IMG/VR virus record: IMGVR_UViG_3300045988_147970
Source: a virus
Taxonomy: Duplodnaviria > Heunggongvirae > Uroviricota > Caudoviricetes
Reading direction: 5' to 3' (one strand)
DNA length: 38,666 nucleotides
A program made the translations under genes and the position numbers. A model generated the notes under the pieces. The model was not told the origin of the DNA and ran no database searches. It saw only the letters and a program-made list of their open reading frames with translations. Of this stretch, positions 21,826 through 38,666 are shown piece by piece (positions within the stretch are counted from its first letter, which is position 1; every line of letters begins with the position of its first letter).

Positions 21826-21831
21826 CAGATT

Positions 21832-22376: not shown

Positions 22377-22380
22377 ATAA

Positions 22381-22403: not shown

Positions 22404-22409
22404 ATTATG

Positions 22410-23591: not shown

Positions 23592-23887
23592 ACATCTGTT
23601 TTGTTATCAATGAAGATTAACCCTAACCCAGCGAAGTAACACAGCAGCGCCCAGGCTGCATACGGAATGCTGGATCTGGATGTGGACTCCTTTAACATCT
23701 GCCAGTTGCGAACATTGCGACTATCTTTTAAGCCTAGTTTTTTGGCTAACTGCGAGCCGCTCATTCCGGTCAGGCCAATGACTGCCCGAACTTCTCCACA
23801 TGTAGGAGATTCCCATTCATCCGCTTTTTTTAAACAAGCCGGATTCAACATTTTTAAAACAGTATCTTTATCCATAACCATCTCCAT
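23588..23887 (-). CDS. XRE-like HTH protein with C-terminal hydrophobic segment
   Basis: HTH-like GMSGSQLAKKLGLKDSRNVRNWQ; C-terminal IPYAAWALLCYFAGLGLIFI; palindrome AGGAAA-N3-TTTCCT just upstream of the start. Confidence 0.4.
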   Translation of the reverse strand: MEMVMDKDTVLKMLNPACLKKADEWESPTCGEVRAVIGLTGMSGSQLAKKLGLKDSRNVRNWQMLKESTSRSSIPYAAWALLCYFAGLGLIFIDNKTDV

Positions 23888-23906
23888 TTATTATATCTAC
23901 GATGGT

Positions 23907-23921
23907 AGGAAATCTTTTCCT
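23907..23921. promoter_or_regulatory. operator-like perfect inverted repeat AGGAAA-TCT-TTTCCT
   Basis: Perfect 6-bp inverted repeat with 3-bp spacer ~20 bp upstream of the HTH gene start; near-identical copies at 14300..14314 and 21880..21894. Confidence 0.5.
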
Positions 23922-24368
23922 ATGTGGCAATAGAAATTTACTACATTGCGTATAAGACAAGTTTTCTATGTCTAATAGGAAATGATGTTTCTTACATTTT
24001 ATCGCGTTCTGATGGCTACTGTGTGCGTATTTATCGACGTTTATTGATAAGGCTCGCCCCTTCCTCCTGCAAAGCCCGGCCGTAGGCCTTATTTCGGCCT
24101 TATATAAATTGATTTTGTATAGTTCGAAACGTGCCGTTTCGAAAAGGATGATCAGGCTGCTCCATGCCTCCGGCAAGTGCCGGAGGAGGTATATTTGAGC
24201 GTAGCGACTCGAACCGGCGCGAGCTTTAGCTCGCTGCAAGGGCGAACATATTCACAGGCAAAGCCTGTGTAAGTTAAATAAAGAAAGTCTTAATAAAAGA
24301 AAGTGATTTTGCATTTATTTGTTTAGTGCATCTATTATAAAAAACCATTTGCATATACATATCAGAAC

Positions 24369-24377
24369 TGTGGATAA
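24369..24377. promoter_or_regulatory. DnaA box (TGTGGATAA) within candidate oriR
   Basis: Perfect 9-mer consensus ~145 bp downstream of the repA stop in an AT-rich stretch. Confidence 0.5.
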
Positions 24378-24518
24378 CTTTATTAGCCGATGCCTGTAAA
24401 GGCGATATTTTTGCTGTGTTCAGGTTTAGAGAAAATTAATTTAGATTGTTTTTTGAACAGATATTTTATTGCGACGTAGATAATCCTCCGGTAAAACCGG
24501 ATTCATCATTCAGGTGGG

Positions 24519-25367
24519 TTAATGTTGGAGTGATTTCCAGGTCTTTCTTAACCTGTTATAACGCTGCTCAACGAGGGATCGTAAATATGCAAGGTCAGCA
24601 CCAGGATACATGCCATCAGCAAATTCCTGACTAACCTCTCTGGTGATTTGATGACGAAGTTCGGCCTCTCCCTTTTCCCGAACAAGACGCGCAGCTCTCT
24701 CCGCTGCTTTCTGTTTTGCCTTTATCTCTCTGGCCGTCTTCCTCTGACGCCATACATTCTCCATCTGCTCCTGAATAACAATACGCTTATAATCAGCCTC
24801 CGTTATCGCTTTTTTAAGCCGTTCGCTATTCTTCGCATTGAAGTAATTAAGTTTCTGGCTAACCGCACGTCTCCATGCTTGTTCAGTAATACCAACGGTT
24901 TCCAGCAGTTGATCACGAATCTCTATTTTCGCTGGCCAATACTGTTTATTCACCCGATCCCAGCGACGTTCATAATCAATAAAACCTAACGCTTTCAGTT
25001 GCGACAACGCCCTTGTACAGCGCGTTATAGACTTGTTCCCAGCTTCGGATACGGTAGACAGGCCGCAAAAATCAGCCAACGCCTCAGCACTAGCCAGAAC
25101 CCGCTTAGAAATGATGTTTACATGGTGCAAAATCGCAGCGATCACAGCATTAATCGCCCGACGACGATGCTCGTTTATCCGGCGCTTCCGCTCTGACGGT
25201 TGATTAACGTAGAACGCAACCTCACACGTAAGATCACGCCCATTAATGCGCTGTAAAGCATCAGATAACACCAGCGGCAGCTTGTGCGTATGGTGCTTTG
25301 GAGGCTGGAACTCCGGCGACAAATTACAAACGTAAGCTGAACGTAGAGACGGCATTGGTCTATCCAT
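24519..25367 (-). CDS. repA: replication initiator RepA, IncFII RepA1 family
   Basis: AINAVIAAILHHVNIISKRVLASAEALADFCGLSTVSEAGNKSITRCTRALSQLKALGFIDYE aligns with my recollection of R100 RepA1. Start set at MDRP; the track ORF extends 44 codons further upstream in frame. Confidence 0.8.
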   Translation of the reverse strand: MDRPMPSLRSAYVCNLSPEFQPPKHHTHKLPLVLSDALQRINGRDLTCEVAFYVNQPSERKRRINEHRRRAINAVIAAILHHVNIISKRVLASAEALADFCGLSTVSEAGNKSITRCTRALSQLKALGFIDYERRWDRVNKQYWPAKIEIRDQLLETVGITEQAWRRAVSQKLNYFNAKNSERLKKAITEADYKRIVIQEQMENVWRQRKTAREIKAKQKAAERAARLVREKGEAELRHQITREVSQEFADGMYPGADLAYLRSLVEQRYNRLRKTWKSLQH

Positions 25368-25382
25368 ATGTTCGCTCTTGCG

Positions 25383-25495
25383 TCCACGGAAAACCAACGT
25401 ATAATGGGAGTTGTCGAGGCGCCCATGGATTGTTGTTGTTGGTTTTCCGTGGATGTCGCAAGAAGCCCGCAGATTTATCTGCGGGCTTTTTGTTT
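25383..25495 (+). ncRNA. candidate CopA-like antisense RNA opposite the repA leader
   Basis: 16-bp perfect inverted repeat (25383..25398 with 25438..25453) followed by hairpin AGCCCGCAGA-TTTA-TCTGCGGGCT and a T-run on the plus strand; boundaries inferred. Confidence 0.4.
25464..25495 (+). terminator. rho-independent terminator on the plus strand, antisense to the repA leader
   Basis: Perfect 10-bp stem with 4-nt loop followed by TTTTTGTTT. Confidence 0.55.
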
Positions 25496-25862
25496 CCATA
25501 TCTGGTCACTTTCCAACCAGACACCCACAATCATAACCACGTTACGTGGTTTTAAGAGAACTCTACCACAACACTTTCGGTCATGCACGAAGTCTCTCAC
25601 TGATCGAACGATAATCCACCAGTAAAAGGATCTAAATTGGATCTCGTTTTGCGAGCATCATACTACTGGCCTAACTCCAGTCAATGATTCCCAGCCAGAA
25701 ACCTGCGGTAAACTCATCGTTCAGCAATATGCTGTCCGGCTTCAAAGATAAGGTGACATCATCCCTTAACAGCGCGGCCAGCTCCGTTAAAGGGTTGTTT
25801 TGACTTAATGCAAAACCGCTAATAAACATATTGGCGGTTTTGTTCCTTAAATCATCTTGCCT

Positions 25863-26438
25863 TTACACTAATTCTGGCCATTCGATATCAGGGGCATTTT
25901 CCGGCTGAACGCGATTCAGTAGCACACGGTATTTTTTCCAGTGTGTCAGGCTTAACTTTTCTTCCTCGGTAGCCATATCTAAATCGACAGCATCCTGCAG
26001 AGTGGCAATAATTTCACCTGCATATGCAATCAGCTCTTTCTTCTGAGAGTCAGCCGCTCTGACAAGCGCATCACGCTCTGCATTCTCATCATTCACCCAC
26101 GCATTGCCGTTCCATTTCTGATAATCCCCCTCCGGGGAAATGGCTGTCACGTCTGGAGGTAATACGCCAAGTTCAGAAATATAAATGGCTGCTCCCGTTT
26201 TCGTTTCATAGACGGTCTTTCCGCGATGGTCTTCCATCAGTTCCCATTTCATTTCATCTGCATTGAAAACGGCTGCATAACCCGCCGGAATATCAGGCGG
26301 TGCAATATCTGTACTGTTTGCAGGCAGGCCAGTATACGGTGGGATATATGCGTCACTTTCGCCAATAAATTCATTGGTTCCATCAAGTAAATTGAAAACG
26401 CGGATAGTTTGTGCTTCTGCACTCATTCTGAAAGCCAT
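25863..26438 (-). CDS. tail fiber assembly protein
   Basis: 191 aa immediately downstream of the tail fiber gene with overlapping stop/start; pattern typical of Tfa chaperones. Confidence 0.7.
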
Positions 26439-29242
26439 TATGCAAGCCTCACAATATAGTTAAATGCGATGTTTTTGACGGTGTTTTCGGTATTACCCGT
26501 AGCATTTACCGTGATGGTGTGTCCGTGCGCACCTAATGCTACAGTGTGTGCATGGGCACCAATACCTACAGTGTGGTTATGCTGACCAATATCCACCGTA
26601 TGGGCGTGCGCTCCGGCGGTGCTGGACACCTGATTGTTTCCTGAAGCCTGTACACGCTGTTTTCCACCGACAGAGTCGCCGCCATAAACACCACCGACAG
26701 TGTGCGTATGATTGCCCGTATTGTTCGTTGATTTTGTGCCATGATTAAACGTACTGACCGTCTTCGTGCCGTAATCAAACGAACTGGTTGTTTTCGTTCC
26801 CAAATCCGTATTTGACGCACTGGCACTGTGAGTATGCGATTTAATCCCGTCCTGTTCCTGTGACAATACGGCACGCCCACTGGCGGGTTTGCCCTTGATT
26901 GTCCAGCCGCGCATATCTGGAATAACACCAGAAGGATAGGCTATAGCCAGTTTCGGATATGCTGCCTTATCAAACGTCTGCCCCTGCATAATTGCATAGC
27001 CCGCAGGTGGTGTATCTGATGGCCACGGCAACGGAACACCTGGCGGAAATGCTTCAATATTTGCCGAGCCGTCAAATTTTACGCCGTTAATTGTCCTTGC
27101 CGTTTTCAGCTTTGTAGCTGTAGCCGCATTGCCGGACAGTTCACCAGAAAGACCACCGCTGAATGTCTGTTTCGCCGCCCATGTCTGAGCTTCGTCGATA
27201 ATTGGCACACGTCTTGTCGTGATCGTGCGGCTTCCCGGATTTCCTGAAATACGCACCATAAAAAAGCGGTAATTCGCTTTACTTACAGTGCTGCGCCATA
27301 CATGCATTGAGCGCCCCGTACCGGAATCATCACTCGGACCAACTGCGATGTTTATCAGGTTGCCATCAATGACGCCCCAGTCCATACCGTCGGGAATGTT
27401 GGTCATGTTATCAAGCCGAACGGTTATCAGACTGCCCGGCACAAAGTCGTGGGTCTGCCAGTCCAGGCTGGTGAGCTTTGCCACTGCACCGCCGATACCC
27501 AGATTCAGGGGAAGTGAATACGAGGTGTAGACTTCCCGCCATTCGCTCCATGAGCTGCCGGTAAAAACGCGCTCAAACGTGCGACCTTTAAGGGTTGTAC
27601 CTGTTCCGGCAGTTGTATAACGCTGCCATACGTTAACACCATCAAAGCGCCTCAACACTTCCAGAATACCGAGGACTGTCACGCCGTTTCCGTCCAGTAT
27701 TGGACCATTGGTCGCTTTACCTGTAACGCTGTAAATACCTGGTGAAGTCACATCATTCAAATCCCCGTCGTAATAACGACTCTCTGACTGATGACCGACT
27801 CTTAACCACGGTTCCCACTGCGGATTTGATGCATCCCAGCTTGCCGCAAGGCAGCGGACATACATATTTCCACGGCGAGTGGTATAACGTTGCGTTCTTC
27901 CATAATTCCCGCCTTCGAGGATCTCAAGCGTCCCCTGAGCAAAGCCGCCTTCCTCTGGATAATTGCGTTCATATGAAGCTATAGCCGAGCTACTGTTACG
28001 CCATAAACCAAGATGCTCGGCGGCTCCAAGCGTATTCAGGTCTATAGTCGTACTCAAAGGGCGGGTAGCAGATTGAGTGTGACGCCATACGCCCCACGGA
28101 CCATCAGTGCCATTCCACTTACTGGCGAGTTTACGCATGTATACATTGCCGTCTCCCGTGGTAAAGCGTTGAGTACCTGCAAAATTGCCGGCAGCAAAAA
28201 CCTCAAGCACACCGACAGCATTATCTTCCGGGAAATTTTTCTCCAGTGTTGCGTTAGTTGAGGTAGCTTTAGACCAGATCCCCAGATAAGCCTTAACGGG
28301 ACCAAATGTATTCAGGTCGGCATCAACCGGCATTTCGCCATTGTTTTTCATAAACGTCAGGCTAGTAACGCCAACATTGTCCAGAAAAGCTGATTTATCC
28401 TGGATATCTGCACCGTTCTGATTTTTCGCCAGACGTGAATTTGCGTTGTCATTTGCTGCCTTGACCGCTTTTGGCGTTGCCGCCTGCGTTTCAGACGTAC
28501 TGTTAGTGGCACTACTGAGCTGAACAATCCCTTTTCGCGCCGTGGTAGCGTCCTGTGCGGTGTATTTAGCGTTAGCCAGGTCATATGCAGCCTTAACAGC
28601 CTTAGGCGTCGCTGCGAGCTTTTCAGACGTGCTATTGGTGGCATTACTGAGTTGAACAATGCCTTTTGATGTTAAAGTTGCATCAGGATGATTACGTGAT
28701 TGCTCATGTTTTACAATAGCTTGCTTAAGCCGCTTTGCTGAAACAGCCAGGGAATCATCTGTACCTGCATCAATTTCTTGTTCATTAGCAAATCTTGCTA
28801 CTCCAACAACAGTTTCGGTTGCGGGAGGGTTAATAAACTCAACATCACCAAATGTAATGTTTTTAGTATCAAGATTTTTAATTGCTATATCACTTGATAT
28901 TAAAGCAATTGTAGAAGATGCTTTATTTATTATTACTTGTTCTTGCGAGTATACAGCAAACAATGTTCCTTTATTTGTATACAAACCTATTGTATGGACA
29001 ACATACTCATCTTTACTATCATCCTTCGCAGTTACATGAATGGTATCAGGAGAAACGACTTTGCCTCCTATTGTGGTAAGTCGCTTTATTTCATCTGTTA
29101 TTTTTGTTTGTGTGGTTGATGTGGCATAATATCTACTACCTAAACCAACAGAAACGATCTCAACTTTATTTGTTCCAGTCTTGTTGGCATTAACCAGCGC
29201 CTTACGCCCGGCGTCAGTCATCGTAAATAATAATTTACTCAC
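26438..29242 (-). CDS. tail fiber protein
   Basis: 934 aa; two tandem copies of a fiber repeat (KGIVQLSxATNSTSE..[10 protein letters not shown]); C-terminus rich in HxH motifs ([21 protein letters not shown]). Confidence 0.8.
28458..28721. repeat. tandem duplication of a ~132-bp unit inside the tail fiber gene
   Basis: Two adjacent ~132-bp units share long identical runs (TTTCAGACGT.CT.TTGGTGGCA.TACTGAG.TGAACAAT.CCTTTT) and encode the repeated peptide motif. Confidence 0.5.
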
Positions 29243-29272
29243 GCTTAATTCCTTGGATTAACAAATCGCAAA

Positions 29273-29854
29273 TTAGCACTCACCAATTAATCGTACATAA
29301 GACACAGGCTGGAAAGCACCGACAATACCAACACCACCTGAAACATTGGTTGCTTGCGAAAATGTAAATAGTGTTCTTGCCGACTTTGCACTCTTGATAC
29401 TTCTTAACGTATCCTCCAACATCTCTTTCGAAGGAACAGCACCATCAAAAGAGTTAATCGAAGCAACAATTGAGGCTGTATATGGTTCGCCAGGTGGTGA
29501 TGTTTCAAACCATTCTGTTATGTTTACCTCTCCACCCAAGCTATTTACTACATCTTCAACCGCTGCCCTTGTACCCTTTATTCGCTTTGTTCGTATTATT
29601 GATTTAAAAACAGAACGCTTTAACGATACAGGCCAACTATCCCTCCATGTATCAGCATTCCATTGCCAAGCTAAATGATCGAGAACAACTGAGTCCAGGT
29701 TATCAACAACGCTATATATTTCTGTCTTATATATTAAATTGTTAATTGCTTGTAGTTCATCATCAATAGCTTTCGACATAGCTATCACGTTGGGATCGCT
29801 AGCTAAGTTAGGAGGTAAAACATCCAACAAGCTAACATTAAAGATATCAGCCAT
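29273..29854 (-). CDS. tail/baseplate protein, P2 gpI-like
   Basis: LDHLAWQWNADTWRDSWPVSLKRSVFKSIIRTKRIKGTRAAVEDVVNSLGGEVNITEWFETSPPGEPY aligns closely with my recollection of P2 gpI. Confidence 0.8.
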   Translation of the reverse strand: MADIFNVSLLDVLPPNLASDPNVIAMSKAIDDELQAINNLIYKTEIYSVVDNLDSVVLDHLAWQWNADTWRDSWPVSLKRSVFKSIIRTKRIKGTRAAVEDVVNSLGGEVNITEWFETSPPGEPYTASIVASINSFDGAVPSKEMLEDTLRSIKSAKSARTLFTFSQATNVSGGVGIVGAFQPVSYVRLIGEC

Positions 29855-30971
29855 CCTCTAACCCCGCATACTGGCAATTTATATTTCTCTCTCTGGCGAC
29901 CTGTGTCTCTCCAACCACATTAAAAACAGGACTTGATATTTCTAATCTTTTAGCCCCAGCATTTTTTAAACGTTGAATAATTTCATCTGGATTTATATCT
30001 CTTCCCATAACCGAACGTTGCCATTGTTTATACTCATCAATAGCTTTCTCAACCTCACTTTGAATTAAAGTTGTTCTGTTTTTGTCCGATGAGTTAATCC
30101 AGTATTTAATTATTATATCGTATTCAATGCTCTCTGGTTTCTTAACAAGAACTTTATCTGTGAATGGTCGAATATTAGTTGCAGAGAGAACGCTATTTAT
30201 CTGCTCTAATAGTTCATCAGAAGGTATATCTCCGTTCTCTAACAAAGAACGGATTTCTACAATTCCGGGCGATGGTGTATATACATTCACATCTTTTATA
30301 TTCTGATTGGCTGTTCTTGTCCAATATTTATAAGAATCCTCCGGCCCTGCTGTAGACAGTTTTTCCGGCGACAGTTTTATTCTTTCAGCATAATTATCAT
30401 CTGACTCCGTATCAGCACCAGAATTAGATGTTGTTACATTCCTTACTCTGGAAACATACGGCAACGGAGTCACCAACTCATTTATTTGCCCTGGTAAAAA
30501 GCCATTCCCAGATAAACCAGGTATAACAGCATATCCTGAGACTGTACCAACTGTTTTCCCAGCAGGTATTTCCAACAAAATATCTGTTTGGAAAATAACA
30601 CCATTTCCAGTTGAAACTTGAGTGCCAGCAGGTATTGTATATATCCCCGATAATTTTGTTGACAGATTAAACTCAAATGTAGTCAAGGCAGATTGAGCTT
30701 CCAGCCTAGGCGTATCCGTCAGATAGCCTATATGGTCGAGATATTCACCTTCACCATATGTAAGAAGGTTTTGTTTTGCAGAAAAATCGATAGCTTTTCT
30801 TTGCTGTATAATAATCTCACACAATGATAAGATGAATAATCTACGTGGATCAGCAGGTGCTAATGTTTCACCTGTTATACTCTCAAAAGCCCTGATTGAA
30901 CGAGTTGTTATATCAGTCGGGTTAGAATCTGCGAAAGTAATATCTGGCAAACCACCACGCGGCAACGTCAT
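29847..30971 (-). CDS. baseplate assembly protein J-like
   Basis: 374 aa between the gpW-like and gpI-like genes, the P2 J position; overlapping starts and stops. Confidence 0.65.
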   Translation of the reverse strand: MTLPRGGLPDITFADSNPTDITTRSIRAFESITGETLAPADPRRLFILSLCEIIIQQRKAIDFSAKQNLLTYGEGEYLDHIGYLTDTPRLEAQSALTTFEFNLSTKLSGIYTIPAGTQVSTGNGVIFQTDILLEIPAGKTVGTVSGYAVIPGLSGNGFLPGQINELVTPLPYVSRVRNVTTSNSGADTESDDNYAERIKLSPEKLSTAGPEDSYKYWTRTANQNIKDVNVYTPSPGIVEIRSLLENGDIPSDELLEQINSVLSATNIRPFTDKVLVKKPESIEYDIIIKYWINSSDKNRTTLIQSEVEKAIDEYKQWQRSVMGRDINPDEIIQRLKNAGAKRLEISSPVFNVVGETQVARERNINCQYAGLEDG

Positions 30972-31288
30972 TCTCTAACTCCTATCACAAGTTTTGGCCT
31001 AATAAAACCATCAGAAACGTCCGTTCTTTCAAAAGTAACAGAATGGATAATCGCTCTAGGCTCAAACTCACTAATTTTTTGAATTATTTCTCGTGTTGCT
31101 GTAGCAATAAAAATTGGACTAGAGCTATCAACAAGACTTGAATTAATTCCTAATTTTCTGGCATATGGTACAGTGCCAATTTGAGTATTAATAATAGTAG
31201 AGACATTTTGCAAAACTTCTTCTACAACTGTTTTGGGCGACCAATCAATCGAGTAAGAAGGTGATGATATGGTAAACGTATTATTCAT
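30968..31288 (-). CDS. baseplate wedge protein, gpW/gp25-like
   Basis: 106 aa; size and position match P2 gpW / T4 gp25 family; weak pattern similarity. Confidence 0.55.
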   Translation of the reverse strand: MNNTFTISSPSYSIDWSPKTVVEEVLQNVSTIINTQIGTVPYARKLGINSSLVDSSSPIFIATATREIIQKISEFEPRAIIHSVTFERTDVSDGFIRPKLVIGVRE

Positions 31289-31752
31289 AATAATTTACCT
31301 AACGCACTTCTAGTTTTTGACTCTATATTGCCAGCAATATCAACTAATGCTTCTTTCAGAGAGGTCTGTCCGACTTCCTGTAATTTAATGCCGACGATAA
31401 TCACTCGTGGATTCCCAGTTGGACCGAAATAAGTCCATGATTCCTCTATATCTGTAATTATAAAATTACCAAAATACTGAATACCAATTACAACAGGATT
31501 TACTTCCTGAATTGATTGCATTGTCCTAAGTAATGAAAGCGCAGCCAATGGAACAATGCCAAGTGTTGTATCCAACCGCATATTAAAACTAACTTCATCC
31601 AGATCTGGACCTATATCCTCCAGAACAGGTTTAAGCCCAATAACATCATGGCGCGCTACACGACGCTTTGACGTCCTTTTAAAATTGTTGAACGTATTCA
31701 CCACTATTGATGAGGCAACAAAAGGCATTGTACCAAGCATACCCACAATCAT
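31285..31752 (-). CDS. tail/baseplate protein (family uncertain)
   Basis: 155 aa between the spike and gp25-like genes; structural by synteny only. Confidence 0.35.
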   Translation of the reverse strand: MIVGMLGTMPFVASSIVVNTFNNFKRTSKRRVARHDVIGLKPVLEDIGPDLDEVSFNMRLDTTLGIVPLAALSLLRTMQSIQEVNPVVIGIQYFGNFIITDIEESWTYFGPTGNPRVIIVGIKLQEVGQTSLKEALVDIAGNIESKTRSALGKLL

Positions 31753-32369
31753 GCCTGAGCCTCCGTTGTCGGAGCGTATTCCCCCTGAGCTGTGTGATGG
31801 TGGCCTTTAGATTTAATCCCATCAACATCTATATCACCACCAACAACCTTAACATTCCCAGAAATTGTAGCTGCAACACCTCCAGCAGAAGATCCTTTCA
31901 TTCCACCTTTGAAGGTTAGTAATCCTTCAACTGTAGCATTTCCGGTAATGATGGTTTCTGGAGCATCAATAGTTACGGTTCCTGTAGCCTTAATGGTTAC
32001 ATCTCCGACAGCATCAACAAGGAGTAAATTAGATTCTCTGTCTATCTCAATACGAGTTCCGTTATTAAATCTAATGACGCGTTTATTAACAGTATTAGAT
32101 GGCGGCTTCTGTGTTTCATCATAAAAACTACCAAGAATAAAACCTTGTTGCGGCCCCGCGGGATGAAAGATACACAAAACTTGCTCACCAATATCTGGCA
32201 TCCAGTAATCAGCATTCTTATCTGTATTTTTCACAATAACTGATAACTTTGCCGAAGTGACGCTATCCTGATCATCGAAAGTAACTCTTGCTGTAACATC
32301 ACCATCATCAATATCAGAAACAACGCCAACTCTTATAGTCTGACGTAATAATGTTTCTAAATCATTCAT
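31749..32369 (-). CDS. baseplate spike / assembly protein V-like
   Basis: IGEQVL, DAPETIITGNATVEGLLTFKGGMKG and C-terminal GHHHTAQGE align with P2 gpV motifs VGEQVL, DTPEVVCTN..LEVQKGGTM and HTHKHPGD. Confidence 0.8.
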   Translation of the reverse strand: MNDLETLLRQTIRVGVVSDIDDGDVTARVTFDDQDSVTSAKLSVIVKNTDKNADYWMPDIGEQVLCIFHPAGPQQGFILGSFYDETQKPPSNTVNKRVIRFNNGTRIEIDRESNLLLVDAVGDVTIKATGTVTIDAPETIITGNATVEGLLTFKGGMKGSSAGGVAATISGNVKVVGGDIDVDGIKSKGHHHTAQGEYAPTTEAQA

Positions 32370-32371
32370 AA

Positions 32372-33373
32372 TTAATACCCATTAATTACTCTTCGGACAT
32401 CAATCGAGGTGGTATAACCACTAGTCCCAATTGAATGCACAGCTTTCGATATAAGATATTTTCCAGAAAATGAACCGAATCCCTCCAGATTTATAGTTAC
32501 ACCAGCTACCAATCTGGTGTCTCCAACCAATACTAAAGATCCGGTATTTTGATATCTATTTTTAAGCCGCAAAGCAGCCTTTGCCTTACGTTTTGCTTCA
32601 TCTAAATTAGCTACCAGTTTTCTTATCTTAAGATTCGACCCTTCTTCTACGGATGGATCTACCCAAGTATACGAAAGCGACTTTCTTTTTTTAGGTACGC
32701 GATATTTGCACGTGCAACTTTTATACAAATCTGTAGATTGTGTGCTAAAGCTATATCTGATTATCTCATCAATACCTAACGTAAGCGTAGCGATAGGATC
32801 TTTTTGCTCAAACATCTCTTGAGCAAATATTATTAATTGGCTATCAGTGACCTTTAACGACAACCCTTCATCCTGGCAAAGTCGATGGAGAAATTTTAAA
32901 TCGCTTTCCTCCATTTGATCTTCACGCGCATAATATGGATTACTATCACCATCAATAAGAAACAACAGTTCAAGGTTAGCTAATTTAGCTATAGAAGTTG
33001 CTATATCTTTAAGAGTTGTTTTTTCCCATGCATTACTTTTTAAATCACGTCTAATGCCTGATGAAACAGGAACAGAAACAGCAGTTACCTCAACCACAGA
33101 AGGTGGTCCAGAGCAAGTTATGCCATCTACCTGGAATTTCCCGCACTCAAGGACGATTTGATTTATAGGCTTAAAGCTCAAATCAATAAAATCACCCTTT
33201 TTAGGTGTCCAGTCTCCAGACCATTTCCCATCATCATTTTTTAATATAATAGAAATATCATCGACCTGACCATCTTCATTATCTGTATAAGACATTGACA
33301 AAACATCAGGTGACATATGAGCGGTAATATTTACATTCTGATATATAACATCAAAAAGCGTTTTACGTAACAC
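32372..33373 (-). CDS. tail protein D-like (P2 gpD / late control D family)
   Basis: 333 aa between the gpX-like and gpV-like genes; assignment mainly by synteny. Confidence 0.55.
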   Translation of the reverse strand: MLRKTLFDVIYQNVNITAHMSPDVLSMSYTDNEDGQVDDISIILKNDDGKWSGDWTPKKGDFIDLSFKPINQIVLECGKFQVDGITCSGPPSVVEVTAVSVPVSSGIRRDLKSNAWEKTTLKDIATSIAKLANLELLFLIDGDSNPYYAREDQMEESDLKFLHRLCQDEGLSLKVTDSQLIIFAQEMFEQKDPIATLTLGIDEIIRYSFSTQSTDLYKSCTCKYRVPKKRKSLSYTWVDPSVEEGSNLKIRKLVANLDEAKRKAKAALRLKNRYQNTGSLVLVGDTRLVAGVTINLEGFGSFSGKYLISKAVHSIGTSGYTTSIDVRRVINGY

Positions 33374-33581
33374 TATTGCGTCTCCACGGAGGAAAATTGT
33401 TTACTGATATTGGCATAACCGGAGCATCAGGAACTTTAAGAATAATTCCCGCAGAAAAAAGCACCGTAAAGCGGTGCTCAGTATTAGCATCAATAAGAAG
33501 ATAAGACAGGTACTCATTACCATACAACTTTAAAGCGATACTATCCCATGAGTCCCCTTGAACCGTTCTATAATCATCCAA
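33363..33581 (-). CDS. tail protein X-like (LysM-like, P2 gpX family)
   Basis: 72 aa; QGDSWDSIALKLYGNE...KVPDAPV parallels P2 gpX QGDTLDAICVRYYG...VELPDVQ. Confidence 0.7.
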   Translation of the reverse strand: MDDYRTVQGDSWDSIALKLYGNEYLSYLLIDANTEHRFTVLFSAGIILKVPDAPVMPISVNNFPPWRRNSVT

Positions 33582-36366
33582 AACTTAATCTCCGTTGTTG
33601 GAACATATGAGCACTCAATTTCTTCTCAAAATCAGAATATCCCGCATCTAATGCTCTTTTAGCTGCCGCCTCAGTTTCCTTTGGTGAACCAGCCGGAAGA
33701 TTGATTACAGGTGAATAGGTTATTCCACCAGTCACAGCGTTAACGTTCTGGCGAGGTCCAGAAGTCCCAGCGGCAGATATCCCGTGAGGTGATAAATTTG
33801 ATTGCCCGAACTTGCTTGCTATTGCATTCTGTAAGCTGTTATTCCTGCTAACACCTGATGCCAGAGTAGTCATTATTGCACCACCTGACTTTGTTAGCTG
33901 TGAGAATGGACCTTTTTTCGCGTCAGAGAACGGTAAATACTCACGTACAGAAGAAAAAACGCCTTTCACTTCATTAATTAAAGCATTTGCTTTTGATTTT
34001 ATCCCAGTGATTAACGTCTCAATTATTTTTGCGCCTGACTCACTCCAGTTTATTCCAGATAAATAAGTCGTTACAGATTGGAATGCTCTTATAAAGAGTC
34101 CAACTGGTGAAAAACGCATAAAAACAGATACCAGTGTATCTATGATTTTCTTTCCTGTTTCGCTCCAGTTAATGCCAGAAAGGTAATTTGTTGTAATTTT
34201 AAATGCTTTAATTAAGAACGGAAGCGGAGACATCCATTTAAAAGCACTAATTAATGTACTGTAAATTCTTACTCCTGCCGAACTCCAGTTTATGTTGGAA
34301 AGATAATCCCATGCTTTACCAAACATAGATATAATCCATCCATTGAGGTCAAAGTTTAAGATAAAGTTTTTTATAGCCTCAAATGATTTAACTGTATATT
34401 CCTTAACAGAAGGCCAAACTCTGACAGCATAATCTCTGATCTTATCCCAATTCTGATAGAGCAATATTCCTGCGGCAACCAGCGCAGATATAGCCATCTG
34501 AATCCACCCGAAGGGTGTTAGCTTTGTCGCTACAGATAAAGCCAGCATAGCTACCCTACACGCTATAACCACACTTTTCATGGTTAGAAACGCACCTGCC
34601 GCCATCACTATCTGAGACACAAAATTGGGGTTGTTAGCTACAAATTCACTAATTTTTGTAATCAGCGGAACCAAAACACTAAGCGCGGCATTCAAAGCAG
34701 GTTGCAAGGCCTGACCAAAACTTAATGATGCATTGCTAGCCTGAATACGTAATTGTTTCAATCGCTCCGCATTATCTTTCGTTATGTTGGCAAAATCGCG
34801 GTCAATAACAGCACTTCCAGCTCCAAGAGATGTTGCTTTGATTCTCTGGTATTCCTTCCAGTTTTGAATCATCGGACGAACAAAGTTCTGAACCTGCATA
34901 TCGCCAAATAGTTCACCAAGTAACTTCTGATCTCCGTTCTTAGTCATTTTCATGACAGAATGCATTGCAGCTTCGAATGGATTCTTCCCTTTTTTCTGCG
35001 CTGTTGTAACAATTTTATATAAATCTACACCGAAATTTTTCTTTGCTTTTTTTAGTGTTTCAGGGGAAAGTATTTTTGCCAAAAAGTTGTTCATATTATT
35101 AGCAGCCTCATCCGAAGTTGCAGCCCCCTTGCGAGCTATCTGCAAAGCTGCACCCATCGTCGCGGCTGCTTCTTTACCTCCCATTTTTAATGCCTGGAAC
35201 TGAGCACCAAGCACAGGAAGATTTTTGGCCATATCTTTAAATTCAAAGTTCCCCTCTTTCCCTGCCTGAACCAGAATCCCCATTGCAGACTTCATTTGAG
35301 ATGGATCAATCTTCAATGAGTCACTTAATGTAAATGATGCTTTCGAGACATCGAGGATATCAGAGCCAGTAGCTGTAGCTGTTCGCCCAATAGTTAGTAG
35401 ATTCGCCTGAGCCTCTTTATAATCCTGCCCAGCAGCGACGAGAAAACCCTGAGCGGCCTGAATATCAGATGCAAACTGGTTGGTAGCCGTTCCGGTAACA
35501 AGCATCGCCTGCCCCATCGCCTGAACTTCTTCCGGCTTCATATCTGCCGTAAGACCAATCATTTTGTTTTCACGATTGAAATTTGCTGCATTGTTAGCAG
35601 CAGCAAATGCACCAGCCGCTACAGCACCAGTTTGTAATCCTGACCTTACAAGTTGACTCTTTGCCTCACCAAGATGCTCTCGCTTCAATTCACGCTGCCT
35701 TTCCAACGCGCGGTTTAACTCCTCCTGAGCACGTTTTACTGCAAGAACATTTTTCCGTGCTTCAGCCAACGCATTTTTATAGCTGTTAATTTTATCAATA
35801 CGTTGTTTTTCTAATGCCCGGTTAAGTTCCTCCTGCTGTTTTTTCACTTGCTGAACATTTGCTCTGGCTAAAGCCAAAGCCGTTCTGTAGCGGTTAACCT
35901 GCTCAACGCTACGGGCCTGAGCCTCACGATTACGATCAATGCTGGCTTTAAGCTCTTTCTCTCTTGAGGCCAAAGCTCTGGCAGATGTATCAGCTCCCTG
36001 ATAGGCAGACTTTAAAGCGGCCAGTTCTTCACGCTGAGAACGTAGTGATGCTCGTAAATTTGATGAATGTGTTTTTGCCTTCTCAAAGTCACGAAGCATC
36101 GCTCTGGTTGGATTGGCCGTGTTTTTTATTTGCTTCTGTAACTCTTCAACGCGAGCGGCAGCTTTATGATATTCGAGGGCAGTCTGTCCAACCTTTACTT
36201 TTACAGATTGTAGCTTTTGAATTTCCCCATGTTCTTTCGTTAACCCAGCAAGCTCTGCATTTAATTTAGCAACAGCCTGATTAGCTGTAGTAAAACTTTT
36301 GGGGAGAGAGGCGGCAACTTTGCCGCCAATTTCAAAAGCCAGCTTAAAGTTCTTATTGCTGGCCAT
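33574..36366 (-). CDS. tail tape measure protein
   Basis: 930 aa, extensive coiled-coil N-terminal half, downstream of the frameshifted chaperone pair. Confidence 0.85.
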   Translation of the reverse strand: MASNKNFKLAFEIGGKVAASLPKSFTTANQAVAKLNAELAGLTKEHGEIQKLQSVKVKVGQTALEYHKAAARVEELQKQIKNTANPTRAMLRDFEKAKTHSSNLRASLRSQREELAALKSAYQGADTSARALASREKELKASIDRNREAQARSVEQVNRYRTALALARANVQQVKKQQEELNRALEKQRIDKINSYKNALAEARKNVLAVKRAQEELNRALERQRELKREHLGEAKSQLVRSGLQTGAVAAGAFAAANNAANFNRENKMIGLTADMKPEEVQAMGQAMLVTGTATNQFASDIQAAQGFLVAAGQDYKEAQANLLTIGRTATATGSDILDVSKASFTLSDSLKIDPSQMKSAMGILVQAGKEGNFEFKDMAKNLPVLGAQFQALKMGGKEAAATMGAALQIARKGAATSDEAANNMNNFLAKILSPETLKKAKKNFGVDLYKIVTTAQKKGKNPFEAAMHSVMKMTKNGDQKLLGELFGDMQVQNFVRPMIQNWKEYQRIKATSLGAGSAVIDRDFANITKDNAERLKQLRIQASNASLSFGQALQPALNAALSVLVPLITKISEFVANNPNFVSQIVMAAGAFLTMKSVVIACRVAMLALSVATKLTPFGWIQMAISALVAAGILLYQNWDKIRDYAVRVWPSVKEYTVKSFEAIKNFILNFDLNGWIISMFGKAWDYLSNINWSSAGVRIYSTLISAFKWMSPLPFLIKAFKITTNYLSGINWSETGKKIIDTLVSVFMRFSPVGLFIRAFQSVTTYLSGINWSESGAKIIETLITGIKSKANALINEVKGVFSSVREYLPFSDAKKGPFSQLTKSGGAIMTTLASGVSRNNSLQNAIASKFGQSNLSPHGISAAGTSGPRQNVNAVTGGITYSPVINLPAGSPKETEAAAKRALDAGYSDFEKKLSAHMFQQRRLSFG

Positions 36367-36371
36367 TAGTA

Positions 36372-36554
36372 TTAATCCTCATTAAACACGTCAATCCATG
36401 CGACGATTCGCCTCAACCGAAGAGAAAGCCAGTAGGATATAGGTGTTGATTGAGATGATTGAGATAGAGAACTCGCGGCCCTCATTATTTGCTTATCAAT
36501 AGGTTTTTGCTCATCAAAACCTACGAGAGCAAAAAATTCTGTACCTTTTGACAA
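36372..36554 (-). CDS. tail assembly chaperone frameshift extension (E-prime-like), -1 frame relative to 36521..36802
   Basis: Overlaps the 3-prime end of the upstream chaperone ORF in the -1 frame; slippery heptamer T_TTT_TTG lies in the overlap. Confidence 0.55.
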   Translation of the reverse strand: MSKGTEFFALVGFDEQKPIDKQIMRAASSLSQSSQSTPISYWLSLRLRRIVAWIDVFNED

Positions 36555-36802
36555 ACTTTAACAAAGTCTTTCGCTGGTAATCCATTCAGATACTCTATTG
36601 GACGACCAATACAGCGAGCAGCCAAGGCTGCATGGACTTTATTATCAAGTGATGTTTGAACTGAAACATGCCCTTGAGATTGCAGTAAGTCCGATACCTC
36701 TAAAATATCACTGCCTTTTAGGTTGTCTAAATCAAGGTTGAGTTCAGTCACCGGCTCAAAGTCTTCAAAACGATATTCTTTACTTAATTTAACGGTTTCC
36801 AT
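36521..36802 (-). CDS. tail assembly chaperone (P2 gpE-like)
   Basis: 93 aa between tube and tape measure genes; ends ...QNFLLS with the slippery site in its last codons. Confidence 0.6.
   Translation of the reverse strand: METVKLSKEYRFEDFEPVTELNLDLDNLKGSDILEVSDLLQSQGHVSVQTSLDNKVHAALAARCIGRPIEYLNGLPAKDFVKVCQKVQNFLLS
36530..36536 (-). other. candidate -1 programmed frameshift slippery heptamer T_TTT_TTG
   Basis: mRNA reads CAG AAT TTT TTG CTC; the -1 frame continues as FFALVGFDEQ..., the 36372..36554 ORF. Confidence 0.5.
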
Positions 36803-36811
36803 TTTGTCACC

Positions 36812-37333
36812 TTATAAACCTAAATCATCACGAACGCTTTTTAATATATCTTCACCATCAAAGATACAAATAAAGTTCAACTTATCAATTTCCAGGACTT
36901 CTTTTCCATCAATAAATAATTTGATATAGAGAACTTCAAATTCATTCTCTGAATCAGTAGCCTTTGCCACCTGTAGCGAACCTAAATCCAGTTTTTTAGG
37001 GTTTAGCTTCATTGAAGCCCGAATAGGAACCGTTTTATATTTTCCTGTTCCTGCATCATAAACCTGCTGGCTACCGCGAAAATCTACCTGATGCGATGAG
37101 GATAGAAATAATTTTGTACCAGCAGAGGTCAGAGTTCGCCATTTAAGAGAGACAGTCATTGGTTTGAAATGCCCCAGCGTTCCGCTCTCAAGCTCTCCAG
37201 CGATACCTGCACCACTAACAGTTTCTGTCATCATCTCAATTGATGGCAGCTTTGCGTCAGCAACACCGATAATACGGTTTCCTTCACCGTATACTGTAAA
37301 GTTAATAAGTCTCTCAGGAATTTGATTGCTCAA
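36812..37333 (-). CDS. tail tube protein (P2 FII-like)
   Basis: C-terminus IDGKEVLEIDKLNFICIFDGEDILKSVRDDLGL aligns with P2 FII MDGKELVEIDTINMIEKVNGVDRLEQHRRNIGL; 173 aa. Confidence 0.85.
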   Translation of the reverse strand: MSNQIPERLINFTVYGEGNRIIGVADAKLPSIEMMTETVSGAGIAGELESGTLGHFKPMTVSLKWRTLTSAGTKLFLSSSHQVDFRGSQQVYDAGTGKYKTVPIRASMKLNPKKLDLGSLQVAKATDSENEFEVLYIKLFIDGKEVLEIDKLNFICIFDGEDILKSVRDDLGL

Positions 37334-37349
37334 AGCAACCTCCTATTAT

Positions 37350-38666
37350 TTATTCAGAAAACAAGTTCAGCAGATAATCAGGATTATATTCCATGACGAA
37401 CTCTATATCTCTGGCAGGTGAGAATGGTGTCATTTTTACATGGAATTTAACAATCCCGTCCATCAATGACGTAATCGTGTTTTCAGACTGATCAAAGGTA
37501 ACAACACCACCTGCAATATCCTGATTACCAGTGAGGCCGTTAAGCCAAATATTCGCACTAGTAACAATCGATTCAATTAATCGACGGTTTGCAGGATTGT
37601 CTATTTTTGACCAATGCGAAAGAATTAACGTATTACCCACCCAGTTAAACATACGTCGGCAAACACGAAATGCGTCTTTGGGGTCTGTAGATGTTGGATA
37701 AATAGCATTACGGTTTCCCCATGATTTCCAACCATCAAAATTAAGGCTTGTTACAATCCCCTGTCCATTTAAGTAGTTTGCCTGGCTAATGTTAAGCCAT
37801 ACCTCACTGCCATCTTTACGTACAGCACCGTCCATCTGTAGTTTTATATTTGACGGAGAACGTGATGGAATATCATCATACTGACTATCCAGCAAGCATG
37901 TTGCTGCAGCTAAATGGGTTGAGTGATGGTAAATATTGTCACCAAGTTTCACCATCGGCCAGCACACTGTCTGGTTAGCTGCCATATGATTATTGTTCTG
38001 CTTCCATTCAGGAACAGCAGAATAATCACTGATAGTAGATTTATCAGTCGGCGCATCGGTGATAGCTTCTGCTTTGAACAATTCACTAATCAGCGCAGCT
38101 TTAGCCGCCATTAGCTGGCCAACTTCACTATCAGAACTAAATCCAGGCGCAATCACTTGTCCAGGAACCAACTTGAAGCGGGGATACACATCAGACAGTA
38201 ACTCAAGCCCTGTATTGGCTTTAGTGTTGGAATCCACACCACCGATAATGTCATTTTTAGTTACGGCACCGGGATCAAGATGCGTATAACTAACCTTAAG
38301 AGTAGCGTCTTTTTCGGTAATTTTTCCTCCGCTAATAGCGGTAATGACCGTATAGCCATTATCATCCAGCGCCAGCACATAATCGGTGTCAACCGTTAAT
38401 CCTGCCGAATCACCATCTGCTTTTTTCACAACAACAGATTTATATAAGACACCATCGTTAGAGAGCGTACCTTTCCCGCCAGAAAGTTTTACTACCTCAT
38501 CAGGTACGTCTTTCTTATGCTTTGCTGGATCAAGCACATTAATAAATACAACTGGCGCAACACCATATATTCCAAATGCGACTTTAATTACTTCGCTTAA
38601 AGTATATTTCTCGAAGTTTGTGCTATATCCTATTTTAGATACGGCCTCTGCGTATGTATAAGCAAT
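37350..38666 (-). CDS. tail sheath protein, 3-prime major portion (reading frame open to the window end)
   Basis: Track ORF 37350..38537 plus 43 in-frame codons to 38666; the first 18 of these are the 54-bp repeat also at 31..84, linking to the N-terminal fragment at 4..231; immediately upstream of the tube gene. Confidence 0.8.
   Translation of the reverse strand: MAYTYAEAVSKIGYSTNFEKYTLSEVIKVAFGIYGVAPVVFINVLDPAKHKKDVPDEVVKLSGGKGTLSNDGVLYKSVVVKKADGDSAGLTVDTDYVLALDDNGYTVITAISGGKITEKDATLKVSYTHLDPGAVTKNDIIGGVDSNTKANTGLELLSDVYPRFKLVPGQVIAPGFSSDSEVGQLMAAKAALISELFKAEAITDAPTDKSTISDYSAVPEWKQNNNHMAANQTVCWPMVKLGDNIYHHSTHLAAATCLLDSQYDDIPSRSPSNIKLQMDGAVRKDGSEVWLNISQANYLNGQGIVTSLNFDGWKSWGNRNAIYPTSTDPKDAFRVCRRMFNWVGNTLILSHWSKIDNPANRRLIESIVTSANIWLNGLTGNQDIAGGVVTFDQSENTITSLMDGIVKFHVKMTPFSPARDIEFVMEYNPDYLLNLFSE
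38613..38666. repeat. 54-bp exact direct repeat, copy 2 (ends exactly at the window end)
   Basis: See copy 1 at 31..84. Confidence 0.85.

Follow-up and report, generated by a model that had tools for sequence, protein, structure and literature searches.

A sequence-only reading of this phage DNA had joined a P2-like contractile tail to a lambda-like head and proposed that the tail module came from a donor of lower GC content, which raises the question of where the compositional joints lie, and which side of each is foreign. In the window, the whole stretch of 38,666 nt that was analysed, positions 28700-33600 are indeed much more AT-rich (GC 0.378 versus 0.443 for the window) and rank with the lowest 4.9 kb windows on the circle, the lowest of which starts at 28752 (GC 0.377). 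Jensen-Shannon segmentation found its strongest breakpoint within the fibre gene, at 28642, close to the position near 28700 suggested by eye, with a statistic of 116 (192.7 on the rotated circle) against null maxima of 19.3 when mononucleotides were shuffled 300 times and 84.6 when 500-nt blocks were shuffled as often. Over 100-nt windows the GC content drops there from 0.52 (28550-28649) to 0.39 (28650-28749). Two more breakpoints were detected at 9056 and 9465, and the compartment of low GC takes in all 19 kb of the virion block, extending from the ParB-like nuclease and the terminase genes as far as the fibre N-terminus. The genome is thus compositionally mosaic, as had been noticed, in the form of compartments and a fibre joint:

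28643..38666, minus strand: tail half of the AT-rich virion block (GC 0.397; segmentation, Pfam)
85..9080, minus strand: head half of the AT-rich virion block (GC 0.426 for 1-9056; segmentation; collinear with X29, XM1, HFM1 and Lily)
9081..9470, no strand: AT-rich intergenic region (GC 0.28), separating the GC-normal compartment from the virion block
9466..25860, minus strand: GC-normal compartment (GC about 0.48, GC3 0.475)
25872..28534, minus strand: imported GC-normal cassette (GC about 0.50), with distal fibre and assembly gene

The tail half contains the fibre N-terminus and the baseplate, tape measure, chaperone, tube and sheath genes, runs across the window ends into 85-9080, and is 98.3-98.8% identical to vB_YpM_39, 613R2 and E. 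coli plasmids. The head half contains the sheath 5′ end, four neck genes, MCP, decoration, a ClpP-type protease, portal, a gpW-like DUF6148 gene, TerL, a candidate TerS and the ParB-like nuclease. The intergenic region may harbour late-control or packaging signals; a promoter and terminator scan of 8900-9800 found no sigma-70-like or terminator-like sites. Position 9494, where homology to vB_YpM_39 ends, was considered as a module boundary and rejected, being merely the start of the circular record of that phage, which is collinear with the window across almost the entire genome.

The window is a circularly permuted phage-plasmid of ~38.6 kb, with 98-100% identity to ~48 kb E. coli plasmids including that of ATCC 25922, and positions 31-84 repeat 38613-38666. 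It carries the plasmid replication initiator RepA and a complete virion gene set but no integrase, circular records exist among the near-identical plasmids, as for an extrachromosomal circular replicon, and no integrase is annotated in those plasmids. A 405-aa ORF (20758-21975) first assumed to be an integrase proved to be a DUF3560 protein in Pfam. Judged from its genes, the element is best described as a temperate myovirus living as a plasmid, of the E. coli ATCC 25922 48-kb plasmid type. The head block was present in 72 of 5426 complete E. coli genomes, with 86 of its 87 places being plasmids of ~47-50 kb, and the tail-region query was covered to at least 80% in 52 of the 5426. The element is therefore found in ~1% of complete E. 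coli genomes, including a reference strain, and literature searches found no paper describing the composition of this plasmid family.

The virion genes fit the description of a lambda-like head and a P2-like tail at the level of profiles. Matches to lambda-family head profiles were strong for the gpA-type large terminase (PF05876+PF20454), the lambda-type portal (PF05136) and the gpE-type MCP (PF03864), with E values of 1e-55 to 1e-101, and weak for the gpD-like decoration protein (HDPD, 18.7 bits, under the 29.1 Pfam cut-off); the head protease matched CLP_protease best (E=4e-32) and Peptidase_S49 weakly. The tail genes were located as follows:

37350..38666, minus strand: tail sheath gene, 3′ 1317 nt (gene cut by the window ends)
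36812..37333, minus strand: tail tube (PF04985, E=3.5e-44)
36521..36802, minus strand: tail assembly chaperone, gpE-like (PF10109, E=1.5e-5)
33574..36366, minus strand: tape measure protein (PF10145)
33363..33581, minus strand: tail protein X homologue (annotated as 'tail protein X' in relatives; weak PF05489 in the Salmonella orthologues)
29273..33373, minus strand: baseplate genes (Pfam), the most AT-rich gene set (GC 0.380, GC3 0.268)
32372-33373, minus strand: baseplate gpD (Pfam)
31749-32369, minus strand: baseplate gpV spike (Pfam)
31285-31752, minus strand: baseplate gpU (Pfam)
30968-31288, minus strand: baseplate gpW (Pfam)
29847-30971, minus strand: baseplate gpJ (Pfam)
29273-29854, minus strand: baseplate gpI (Pfam)

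These matched the P2-family profiles FII tube, gpD, V, U, W, J and I, with PF04985, PF05954, PF04717, PF06995, PF04865 and PF09684 over their cut-offs and the gpW profile PF04965 under it (22.9 versus 27.2); P2-family tube, baseplate (V, W, J, I) and tail-completion (U, D) proteins are present. The full sheath gene, complement(join(37350..38666,85..231)), encodes 487 aa, translates without stops when reconstructed, and is 1464 nt long in relatives. The 487-aa protein matched no Pfam-A family at E≤0.01, a P2 FI-type sheath not being recognisable by sequence, and it shares 54% identity with the X29 sheath and 27% over 144 aa with a P2-type sheath.

In raw GC, baseplate, tube and neck (0.36-0.39; baseplate 0.380) do lie below MCP (0.443), TerL (0.444) and portal (0.448), but sheath (0.415) and TMP (0.424) are about as rich in GC as these three and decoration (0.427), and the protease gene (0.365) is as poor in GC as the baseplate. 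At third codon positions the pooled GC3 values were head 0.304, neck 0.323, sheath-tube 0.337, TMP 0.352 and baseplate 0.268, versus 0.475 for early and lysis genes and 0.478 for the distal fibre. At synonymous sites GC3 was 0.30-0.33 in the head and 0.27-0.35 in the tail, and gene-level Mann-Whitney tests on GC3 separated all virion genes from the remaining genes (p=3.6e-9), but not head from tail (p=0.13) or portal-to-MCP from tail (p=0.83). The GC3 and fourfold-site contrast between the compartments is 0.15-0.2. The raw-GC gap between head and baseplate lies mostly at first codon positions (GC1 0.565 versus 0.471) and thus reflects amino-acid composition. Nor does the best split inside the virion block mark the head-tail junction; it falls at ~4290, between the protease and portal genes and hence within the head module. 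Dinucleotide δ* (×1000) was 38 for head-early and 49-59 for head-tail, which does not group the head with the tail; this is weak evidence, because each segment spans just 5-7 kb. The AT-rich class is not a matter of tail versus head, as the head matches the tail at synonymous sites. Some real head/tail difference does exist, since a head-over-baseplate GC3 offset of 0.06-0.15 recurs in the enterobacterial relatives (0.330 versus 0.268 in the window, the tail figure being that of the baseplate); as the offset is found in every enterobacterial relative with both modules, it predates this lineage.

Phylogenetic comparison also kept head and tail together. A lambda-type head collinear with a tail of P2-family domains is present in X29, XM1, HFM1, Lily, Saumur and the Salmonella and Yersinia relatives, and the X29/XM1-Lily order (TerS-TerL-W-portal-ClpP-deco-MCP-neck-sheath-tube-chaperone-TMP-X-D-V-U-W-J-I-fibre) is followed by the window with homology detectable throughout. 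Searches by tblastn with sheath and with MCP recovered much the same leading relatives, ranked similarly, and neighbour-joining trees of head, sheath-tube and baseplate were congruent for the window. Nucleotide identity to the Salmonella relative was 73.2% for the head and 71.6-76.2% for the tail. At the protein level, most head proteins share 84-89% identity with Salmonella (protease 68%, decoration 62%) and most tail proteins 78-90% (66-70% for chaperone, gpW and TMP). One relative, SRR236, has a head of 83-90% identity and a baseplate of 55-68%, showing baseplate allele exchange within the family. The sheath query against one genome per species gave just distant relatives (≤53%, in Negativicutes and Clostridia), the intermediate relatives being drawn from the protein database rather than from that scan. 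On these homologies the head-tail pairing is conserved from Firmicutes phages through Vibrio phages to the Salmonella and Yersinia relatives.

Compared with its relatives, the virion block is AT-rich as a whole. Set against their Salmonella orthologues, head genes have a GC3 about 0.15 lower and tail genes one 0.13 lower, and the relatives form a graded GC3 series, relative to all sampled members of which the virion block of the window is AT-shifted. Against the Salmonella phage-plasmid, GC3 of virion orthologues was 0.321 versus 0.449 (shift -0.128) and of non-virion, backbone orthologues 0.477 versus 0.525 (-0.048), at protein identities of 77.6% and 79.7%, respectively; the shift tapers at the left edge of the block (TerS -0.04, ParB nuclease -0.06). 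Since the non-virion orthologues are as diverged as the virion ones, a recently imported early region is not the whole reason for the GC3 contrast. No low-GC donor was recognised among the sequences sampled, with no homologue at 95-84% identity and none of higher AT content than the window; in a set of 5.8 billion proteins, sheath homologues from E. coli are at 95-99% identity and the next, from Salmonella, at 84%. Polarised singletons in the virion block comprised 104 S>W and 77 W>S changes, without sign of upward amelioration, and the S>W:W>S ratio was about 1.35 in both compartments, on small singleton counts that may include recombination tracts.

The GC-normal compartment encodes ParB/Srx, a ParB-methyltransferase, an MT-A70 methylase, holins, a GH108 endolysin, Ea22-like genes, DUF3560, a RelE/HigB-type toxin-antitoxin pair and RepA, and includes two features of note here:

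24519..25499, minus strand: RepA, plasmid replication initiator (PF02387, E=1.3e-43; annotated repA in relatives)
15253..15328, minus strand: ileX-like tRNA with anticodon CAT (ARAGORN; Rfam tRNA, 67 bits)

Recent import of this half as a general claim was rejected, as 11 of its genes have orthologues in the Salmonella phage-plasmid that diverged like virion genes (79.7% aa). Only patches are demonstrably exchanged, namely the Ea22-like block, with stretches 92-96% identical to lambdoid prophages, the toxin-antitoxin pair (95% identity to Y. pestis 9.6 kb plasmids) and the fibre cassette. The tRNA was the sole RNA found in the Rfam scan and is 89.7% identical to an E. coli gene annotated as tRNA-Ile beside mug, consistent with a tRNA-Ile2 that would read AUA after lysidine modification. 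AUA accounts for 21.2 of every 1000 codons in virion genes, versus 12.1 in the other genes.

The step in the fibre gene has a separate origin, at the following features:

28643..29242, minus strand: native AT-rich N-terminal part of the fibre, the baseplate anchor (GC3 0.21)
28449..28678, minus strand: fibre junction zone, with Phage_fiber_2 repeats (aa 189-229, PF03406) and an 86-nt overlap
26438-28534, minus strand: distal fibre (Caudo_TAP and Collar domains found in the cassette)
25863-26438, minus strand: tail-fibre assembly gene, part of the imported cassette

The N-terminal part is conserved to 28725 with the Salmonella relatives and to 28449 with vB_YpM_39, and blastn end-points show family homology and P2-type fibre homology meeting in the overlap 28449-28534 (86 nt), with a 24-aa motif 75% identical to a P2-like fibre just before the joint. 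The cassette has 93.3% nucleotide identity to a P2-like prophage of E. coli O25b:H4, and 27087-28535 has 93.1% to P2 gene H. Other cassettes take its place in 613R2/L011 (from 26763) and in vB_YpM_39/ATCC 25922, where the cassette is Hin-invertible. A lineage-own anchor thus meets a near-identical foreign distal part and chaperone at a conserved motif, and these alignments identify the step as a recombination joint. The side regarded as foreign had to be reversed: by the same alignments, it is the GC-rich, P2-derived distal part that is imported and the AT-rich part that is native. The GC-richer fibre tip from a P2-type prophage is the only clear foreign insert, and represents ordinary phage mosaicism.

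Taken together, the AT-rich stretch is probably part of a head-plus-tail virion block inherited as a unit, with the fibre tip imported. The composition of the element has three layers. The 19 kb virion block, from ParB-like nuclease to fibre N-terminus, is probably a single inherited unit, its pairing ancestral to a widespread type, with a GC3 in the E. coli lineage of about 0.32 that lies below every relative sampled in head and tail equally. The 16 kb regulatory, lysis and replicon compartment (GC3 about 0.475) is partly vertical and partly exchanged with enterobacterial mobile elements. The distal fibre and chaperone cassette recombined in from a P2-type prophage at the conserved fibre-repeat motif, producing the sharp GC step at ~28.64 kb. 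The low virion GC3 may result from long uninterrupted residence under AT-biased mutation, while the second compartment may have been refreshed repeatedly by recombination, and the ileX-like tRNA may help translation of the AUA-rich late genes; given the equal S>W:W>S ratio in both compartments, differential drift is something we only infer.

An origin of the contractile tail alone from a lower-GC donor, joined to a GC-richer lambda-like head, is most improbable. It would account for baseplate, tube and neck being poorer in raw GC (0.36-0.39) than TerL, portal and MCP (0.44-0.45), for the head-over-tail GC3 offset in the window and its relatives, and has a parallel in the baseplate allele exchange of SRR236; however, the head has the GC3 and GC4 of the tail with non-significant gene-level tests, the protease gene equals the baseplate in AT content and the internal split lies within the head module, the head is shifted towards AT relative to Salmonella no less than the tail, trees are congruent with equal nucleotide divergence and a collinear pairing conserved across phyla, and an offset present in all enterobacterial relatives with both modules is not recent. 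We also consider it improbable that protein composition and codon selection differing by gene class produced the pattern without any historical signal: the head-baseplate gap at first codon positions and the lower virion GC3 of the Salmonella phage-plasmid itself agree with this, but the fibre step coincides with a 93%-identity import, a 0.15-0.2 contrast at GC3 and fourfold sites is not an amino-acid effect, and the Salmonella relative shows only half the contrast of the window.

Less easily dismissed, though still unlikely, is a swap of the whole head-and-tail block from an unsampled AT-richer family member into a GC-normal phage-plasmid backbone. It would have joined block and backbone near 9.1-9.5 kb and within the fibre gene. 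Two sharp boundaries delimiting exactly the virion block, the larger shift in virion than in backbone orthologues, its tapering at the left edge, and the AT-richer members of the graded series, such as SRR332, speak for such a swap; against it, 5.8 billion proteins contained no closer AT-rich donor, virion and backbone orthologues are equally diverged (77.6 and 79.7% aa), and the W>S excess that ameliorating foreign AT-rich DNA would give is absent. Inheritance of the block as a unit with an imported fibre tip remains our preferred reading. A bolder and less probable reading is that the E. coli lineage has undergone, or imported as a unit, a strong AT shift largely confined to the 19 kb virion block, with its own ileX-like tRNA keeping AUA-rich genes translatable. 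If so, compositional evolution would be compartment-specific inside one small replicon, and not simple module import, possibly driven by the silence of late genes while the element is a plasmid or by xenogeneic-silencing selection. A GC3 difference of 0.15 between halves of a 40-50 kb replicon despite equal protein divergence is of modest interest for studies of how mobile elements drift towards AT and of phage-borne tRNAs.

Among known systems, the closest are the ~47-50 kb E. coli RepA phage-plasmids, such as NZ_CP009073.1 (the ATCC 25922 plasmid), NZ_CP023368.1 and NZ_CP064105.1, which form one group with the phage records vB_EcoM-613R2/473R2 and Yersinia phages vB_YpM_39/41/44. These share 98-100% nucleotide identity with the window across the virion block and most of the remainder, as well as gene order, RepA, the toxin-antitoxin pair, lysis genes and the tRNA. 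The window is ~9 kb shorter, as it is without a ParA / HTH-repressor / ORF6N-antirepressor segment, which carries ParA and in the relatives is flanked by two ~110-nt direct repeats, and its distal fibre and tfa cassette differs from theirs, some of which are Hin-invertible and others have another tip.

More distant are the Vibrio phages X29, phi 2, Rostov 7 and vB_VpaM_XM1, for which the family 'Weiviridae' was proposed (PMC11432961). X29-type phages have a virion block collinear with that of the window from ParB nuclease/TerS/TerL to fibre, with identities for X29/XM1 of 63-65% (TerL), 66% (portal), 45-47% (MCP), 50-54% (sheath), 55-58% (tube) and 45-46% (gpJ), and XM1 has myovirus morphology. 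X29/XM1-type phages differ in having integrases, no RepA replicon, early regions unlike those of the window, and a nearly uniform virion block (head versus baseplate GC difference ≤0.02). More distantly still, Acinetobacter HFM1, Paenibacillus phage Lily (Lilyvirus) and Clostridium phage Saumur have the same layout.

The P2 (Peduoviridae) tail shares with the window the FII tube, gpD, gpV, gpU, gpW, gpJ, gpI and E-type chaperone families, but not a close relationship, with 25-32% aa identity over partial lengths to P2-type proteins versus 35-58% to X29 for the named tail proteins (exceptions TMP, 24%, and gpI, 28%). Nor is the gene order that of P2, taken as V-W-J-I-H-G and FI-FII-E-E′-T-U-D: the window has one tail cluster (sheath-tube-chaperone-TMP-X-D-V-U-W-J-I-H-tfa), while a P2-like prophage has two, V-W-J-I-H-G and FI-FII-E-T-U-D. 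The look of a lambda head with a P2 tail is that of a conserved, widespread myovirus layout and not of a recent chimera, and annotating the element as P2-like or hybrid would mislead.

The fibre joint finds its match elsewhere. Distal tail-fibre segments have reportedly been exchanged horizontally among unrelated phages such as P2, Mu, P1 and lambda. The window resembles that exchange in its native anchor, its foreign shaft and tip with the cognate chaperone, and its joint at a conserved repeat, and the sister genomes resemble it in their alternative cassettes, one of them switched by an invertase. The joint is a clean, datable exchange of a host-range cassette between a phage-plasmid and chromosomal P2-type prophages, and a textbook instance of tail-fibre exchange from which nothing material differs.

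The window shows ordinary phage mosaicism in an element already present in databases: its head-plus-tail block is ancestral, its fibre cassette is P2-derived and its backbone is patchy. Two sets of records matched it at 98–100% identity: E. coli plasmids of ~47–50 kb, among them that of ATCC 25922 (48,488 bp), and the phages vB_EcoM-613R2/473R2 and Yersinia phage vB_YpM_39/41/44. Of 5426 complete E. coli genomes, 72 carry the head block, with 86/87 of its places on plasmids, and the element is therefore a phage-plasmid. Every long ORF is on the minus strand, and the main features are:

Tail genes, minus strand: tail tube (PF04985), E-type chaperone, tape-measure protein (TMP), gpD, gpV, gpU, gpW, gpJ and gpI (Pfam)
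Head genes, minus strand: gpA-type large terminase, lambda-family portal, ClpP-type protease, gpE-type major capsid protein (MCP); weak gpD-like decoration match
26438–29242, minus strand: fibre with Phage_fiber_2 repeats and Collar domain, followed by a Caudo_TAP assembly gene
complement(join(37350..38666,85..231)): sheath gene, cut by the window ends, 487 aa when rebuilt
24519–25499: IncFII-type RepA

Positions 31–84 are the same as 38613–38666, a 54 nt end overlap as for a circular assembly, and the window is thus circularly permuted. The first 30 nt (CTATTATAAAGAACCTGAGCAGACAGCGGA) have no match elsewhere in the window or in the close relatives L001 (vB_YpM_39) and L002, and resemble an artefact of the assembly or of the window end. 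The 487 aa sheath had no match in a local Pfam-A copy; it has 3621 homologues at E ≤ 1e-50, and PF27730 is pre-annotated on some database homologues. Several ParB/Srx genes are encoded in the window, where no integrase was identified, the lone candidate ORF being a DUF3560 protein. A direct repeat of ~103 nt (95% identical) is present at 14252–14354 and 21832–21934, and at 365–491, 9285–9398 and 40988–41110 of a 47.5 kb plasmid relative (L011). The ~8.9 kb of the 47.5 kb plasmids that is absent from the window lies exactly between two repeat copies, and encodes ParA, an HTH repressor-like gene, an ORF6N antirepressor, Ref nuclease and DUF1064; the window thus appears to have arisen by a deletion that took the partition ATPase and some of the immunity region.

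The sequence-only reading had flagged 28700–33600 as AT-rich, and this interval is real, with a GC of 0.378 versus 0.443 for the whole window and the minimum of all 4.9 kb windows starting at 28752. Entropy segmentation placed breakpoints at 28642, 9465 and 9056, with a score of 116 for the first split, or 192.7 on the rotated circle, compared with shuffle maxima of 19.3 (mononucleotide) and 84.6 (500-nt blocks).

Table. GC content of the segments from entropy segmentation.
1–9056: 0.426
9057–9465: 0.284
9466–28642: 0.478
28643–38666: 0.397

The proposed mosaic stands as an AT-rich stretch, but its genes were mis-grouped as tail versus head, since the protease gene (raw GC 0.365) is as AT-rich as the baseplate (0.380), and GC3 of head and tail is similar. 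Raw GC of TMP (0.424) and sheath (0.415) is close to that of decoration (0.427), MCP (0.443), TerL (0.444) and portal (0.448). Pooled GC3 was lowest in the fibre N-terminus (0.210) and the baseplate (0.268), followed by head (0.304), neck (0.323), sheath-tube (0.337) and TMP (0.352), versus 0.475 in early and lysis genes and 0.478 in the distal fibre, with the same pattern at fourfold-degenerate sites. Gene-level tests of GC3 separated virion genes from the rest (p=3.6e-9) but showed no difference of head from tail, either with (p=0.13) or without (p=0.83) the terminase genes. The best split within the ~19 kb virion block was at ~4290, on the protease/portal border (GC 0.398 versus 0.449) and not at the head-tail junction, and the gap in raw GC between head and baseplate is mainly in GC1 (0.565 versus 0.471). 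Directly upstream of the ParB-nuclease/terminase genes lies a 390-nt intergenic region (9081–9470, GC 0.28), preceded by ~150 GC-rich nt (9480–9637); it may serve late control or packaging (cos), and a scan for consensus promoters and terminators gave none.

The fibre gene was read as having a composition breakpoint near 28700, and this joint is real (step at 28642), but the imported side is the GC-rich distal part. Homology to the Salmonella relatives stops at 28725 and to vB_YpM_39 at 28449. The stretch 25872–28534 matches, at 93.3% identity, the distal fibre and its assembly gene in a P2-like prophage that adjoins ogrK in E. coli O25b:H4; P2 gene H itself is 93.1% identical over 27087–28535. 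The joint is at the Phage_fiber_2 repeats (aa 189–229), beside a 24-aa motif 75% identical to P2-type fibre. Beyond the shared N-terminal anchor, the tip of 613R2 and NZ_CP064105 differs from 26763 on, and an invertase-switched cassette is present in vB_YpM_39, ATCC 25922 and the Salmonella plasmid. These end-points and alternative cassettes show that the step is a true recombination joint. In the records of vB_YpM_39 (L001, 21749–23874) and of the ATCC 25922 plasmid and Salmonella phage-plasmid (L027, 10712–12887; L026, 25037–27328), an inverted alternative tfa and a Hin-type recombinase replace the window's fixed P2-type cassette, with an inverted fibre-end ORF beside the inverted tfa in vB_YpM_39; such gene content points to a possibly switchable host range in the family.

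The GC-normal compartment (9466–25860) is in part family-inherited, with orthologues in the Salmonella phage-plasmid. Lambdoid prophages of thousands of E. coli genomes match its Ea22-like block at 92–96% identity, a RelE/HigB-type toxin and HTH antitoxin pair (~22410–23145) is 95.4% identical to a pair on ~9.6 kb Y. pestis plasmids, and the RepA region is family-specific. The sole tRNA (15253–15328, minus strand, anticodon CAT) is ileX-like, and is labelled tRNA-Met both by ARAGORN and in the vB_YpM_39 record; it is an 89.7% match to the E. coli tRNA-Ile gene adjoining mug, and its 5′ 42 nt are presumably the same as in ileX. AUA represents 32% of Ile codons in virion genes (21 per 1000 codons) and 22% elsewhere (12 per 1000), and the tRNA may read AUA and support the AT-rich late genes. 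A 99-aa ORF overlapping it (15155–15454) is probably spurious.

The origin of the tail from a lower-GC donor was not supported. Head GC exceeds tail GC by about 0.03–0.09 in every enterobacterial relative having both modules (GC3 offset up to 0.15), whereas the offset is almost nil in Vibrio, Acinetobacter and Firmicutes phages; the modest offset is thus long-standing in enterobacterial members and no mark of recent tail acquisition. GC3 of the window is below that of every relative in head and tail alike, with weighted shifts of about −0.15 and −0.13, respectively, versus Salmonella orthologues. Orthologues in a complete phage-plasmid of Salmonella Weltevreden that shares the general layout (NZ_LN890526.1) show that the contrast between compartments is present in the sister lineage and doubled in the window.

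Table. Orthologues in the window and NZ_LN890526.1.
Virion: window GC3 0.321; Salmonella GC3 0.449; aa identity 77.6%
Non-virion: window GC3 0.477; Salmonella GC3 0.525; aa identity 79.7%

Singleton differences polarised among five family members, though small in number, were 104 GC-to-AT and 77 AT-to-GC in the virion block, and 155 and 115 in the rest of the genome; an upward pull towards host GC is absent in both compartments. This AT shift, specific to the lineage and located in the virion block, is mildly interesting.

A recent joining of the tail to a lambda-like head is likewise contradicted, as the pairing is collinear in relatives and trees recover the same clades. Sheath and MCP tblastn searches gave largely shared top relatives in similar order, all with a collinear head-tail block.

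Table. Identity to the window (sheath; MCP).
Vibrio phages X29, phi 2, Rostov 7: 54%; 47%
vB_VpaM_XM1 group: 50%; 45%
Clostridium phage Saumur: 41%; 41%
Paenibacillus phage Lily: 44%; 40%
Acinetobacter phage HFM1: 46%; 36%

Intermediate relatives came from a search of 5.8 billion proteins, after which contigs were fetched. Compared with Salmonella relatives, head proteins are mostly 84–89% identical (except protease, 68%, and decoration, 62%) and tail proteins mostly 78–90% (except chaperone, gpW and TMP, 66–70%), with nucleotide identities of 73.2% over 1620–9526 and 71.6–76.2% over 28725–38666. Neighbour-joining trees of TerL+portal+MCP, sheath+tube and gpD+gpJ recovered the same clades. Discordance was seen in a relative and not in the window: in contig SRR23622334_2133 (L019), head proteins are 83–90% identical to the window and baseplate proteins 55–68%, and in a further relative (L030) baseplate D to I are 66–78% identical versus 82–88% for TerL, portal and MCP. 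The greater divergence of the baseplate indicates exchange of baseplate alleles within the family, the joint falling after TMP and before gpD. The far more diverged genes D to I of L019 are at 15480–19703. The Yersinia relatives carry ParD/ParE and YafO toxin-antitoxin cassettes mid tail operon (L021, 12665–14775; L022, 12558–13077), in the gap that separates the tail chaperone gene from the tape-measure gene.

The window's tail proteins differ from those of the P2-like prophage, being 25–32% identical over partial lengths and in another gene order. Electron microscopy shows XM1 to be a myovirus, and the Vibrio group is placed by the authors of that work in a proposed new family (PMC11432961). 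Upstream of the terminase, the window has three consecutive ParB/Srx-domain genes (8490–12370), one fused to a methyltransferase domain (10374–11753), an arrangement kept in the Salmonella phage-plasmid; in X29 and XM1, a ParB-like nuclease also lies ahead of TerS.
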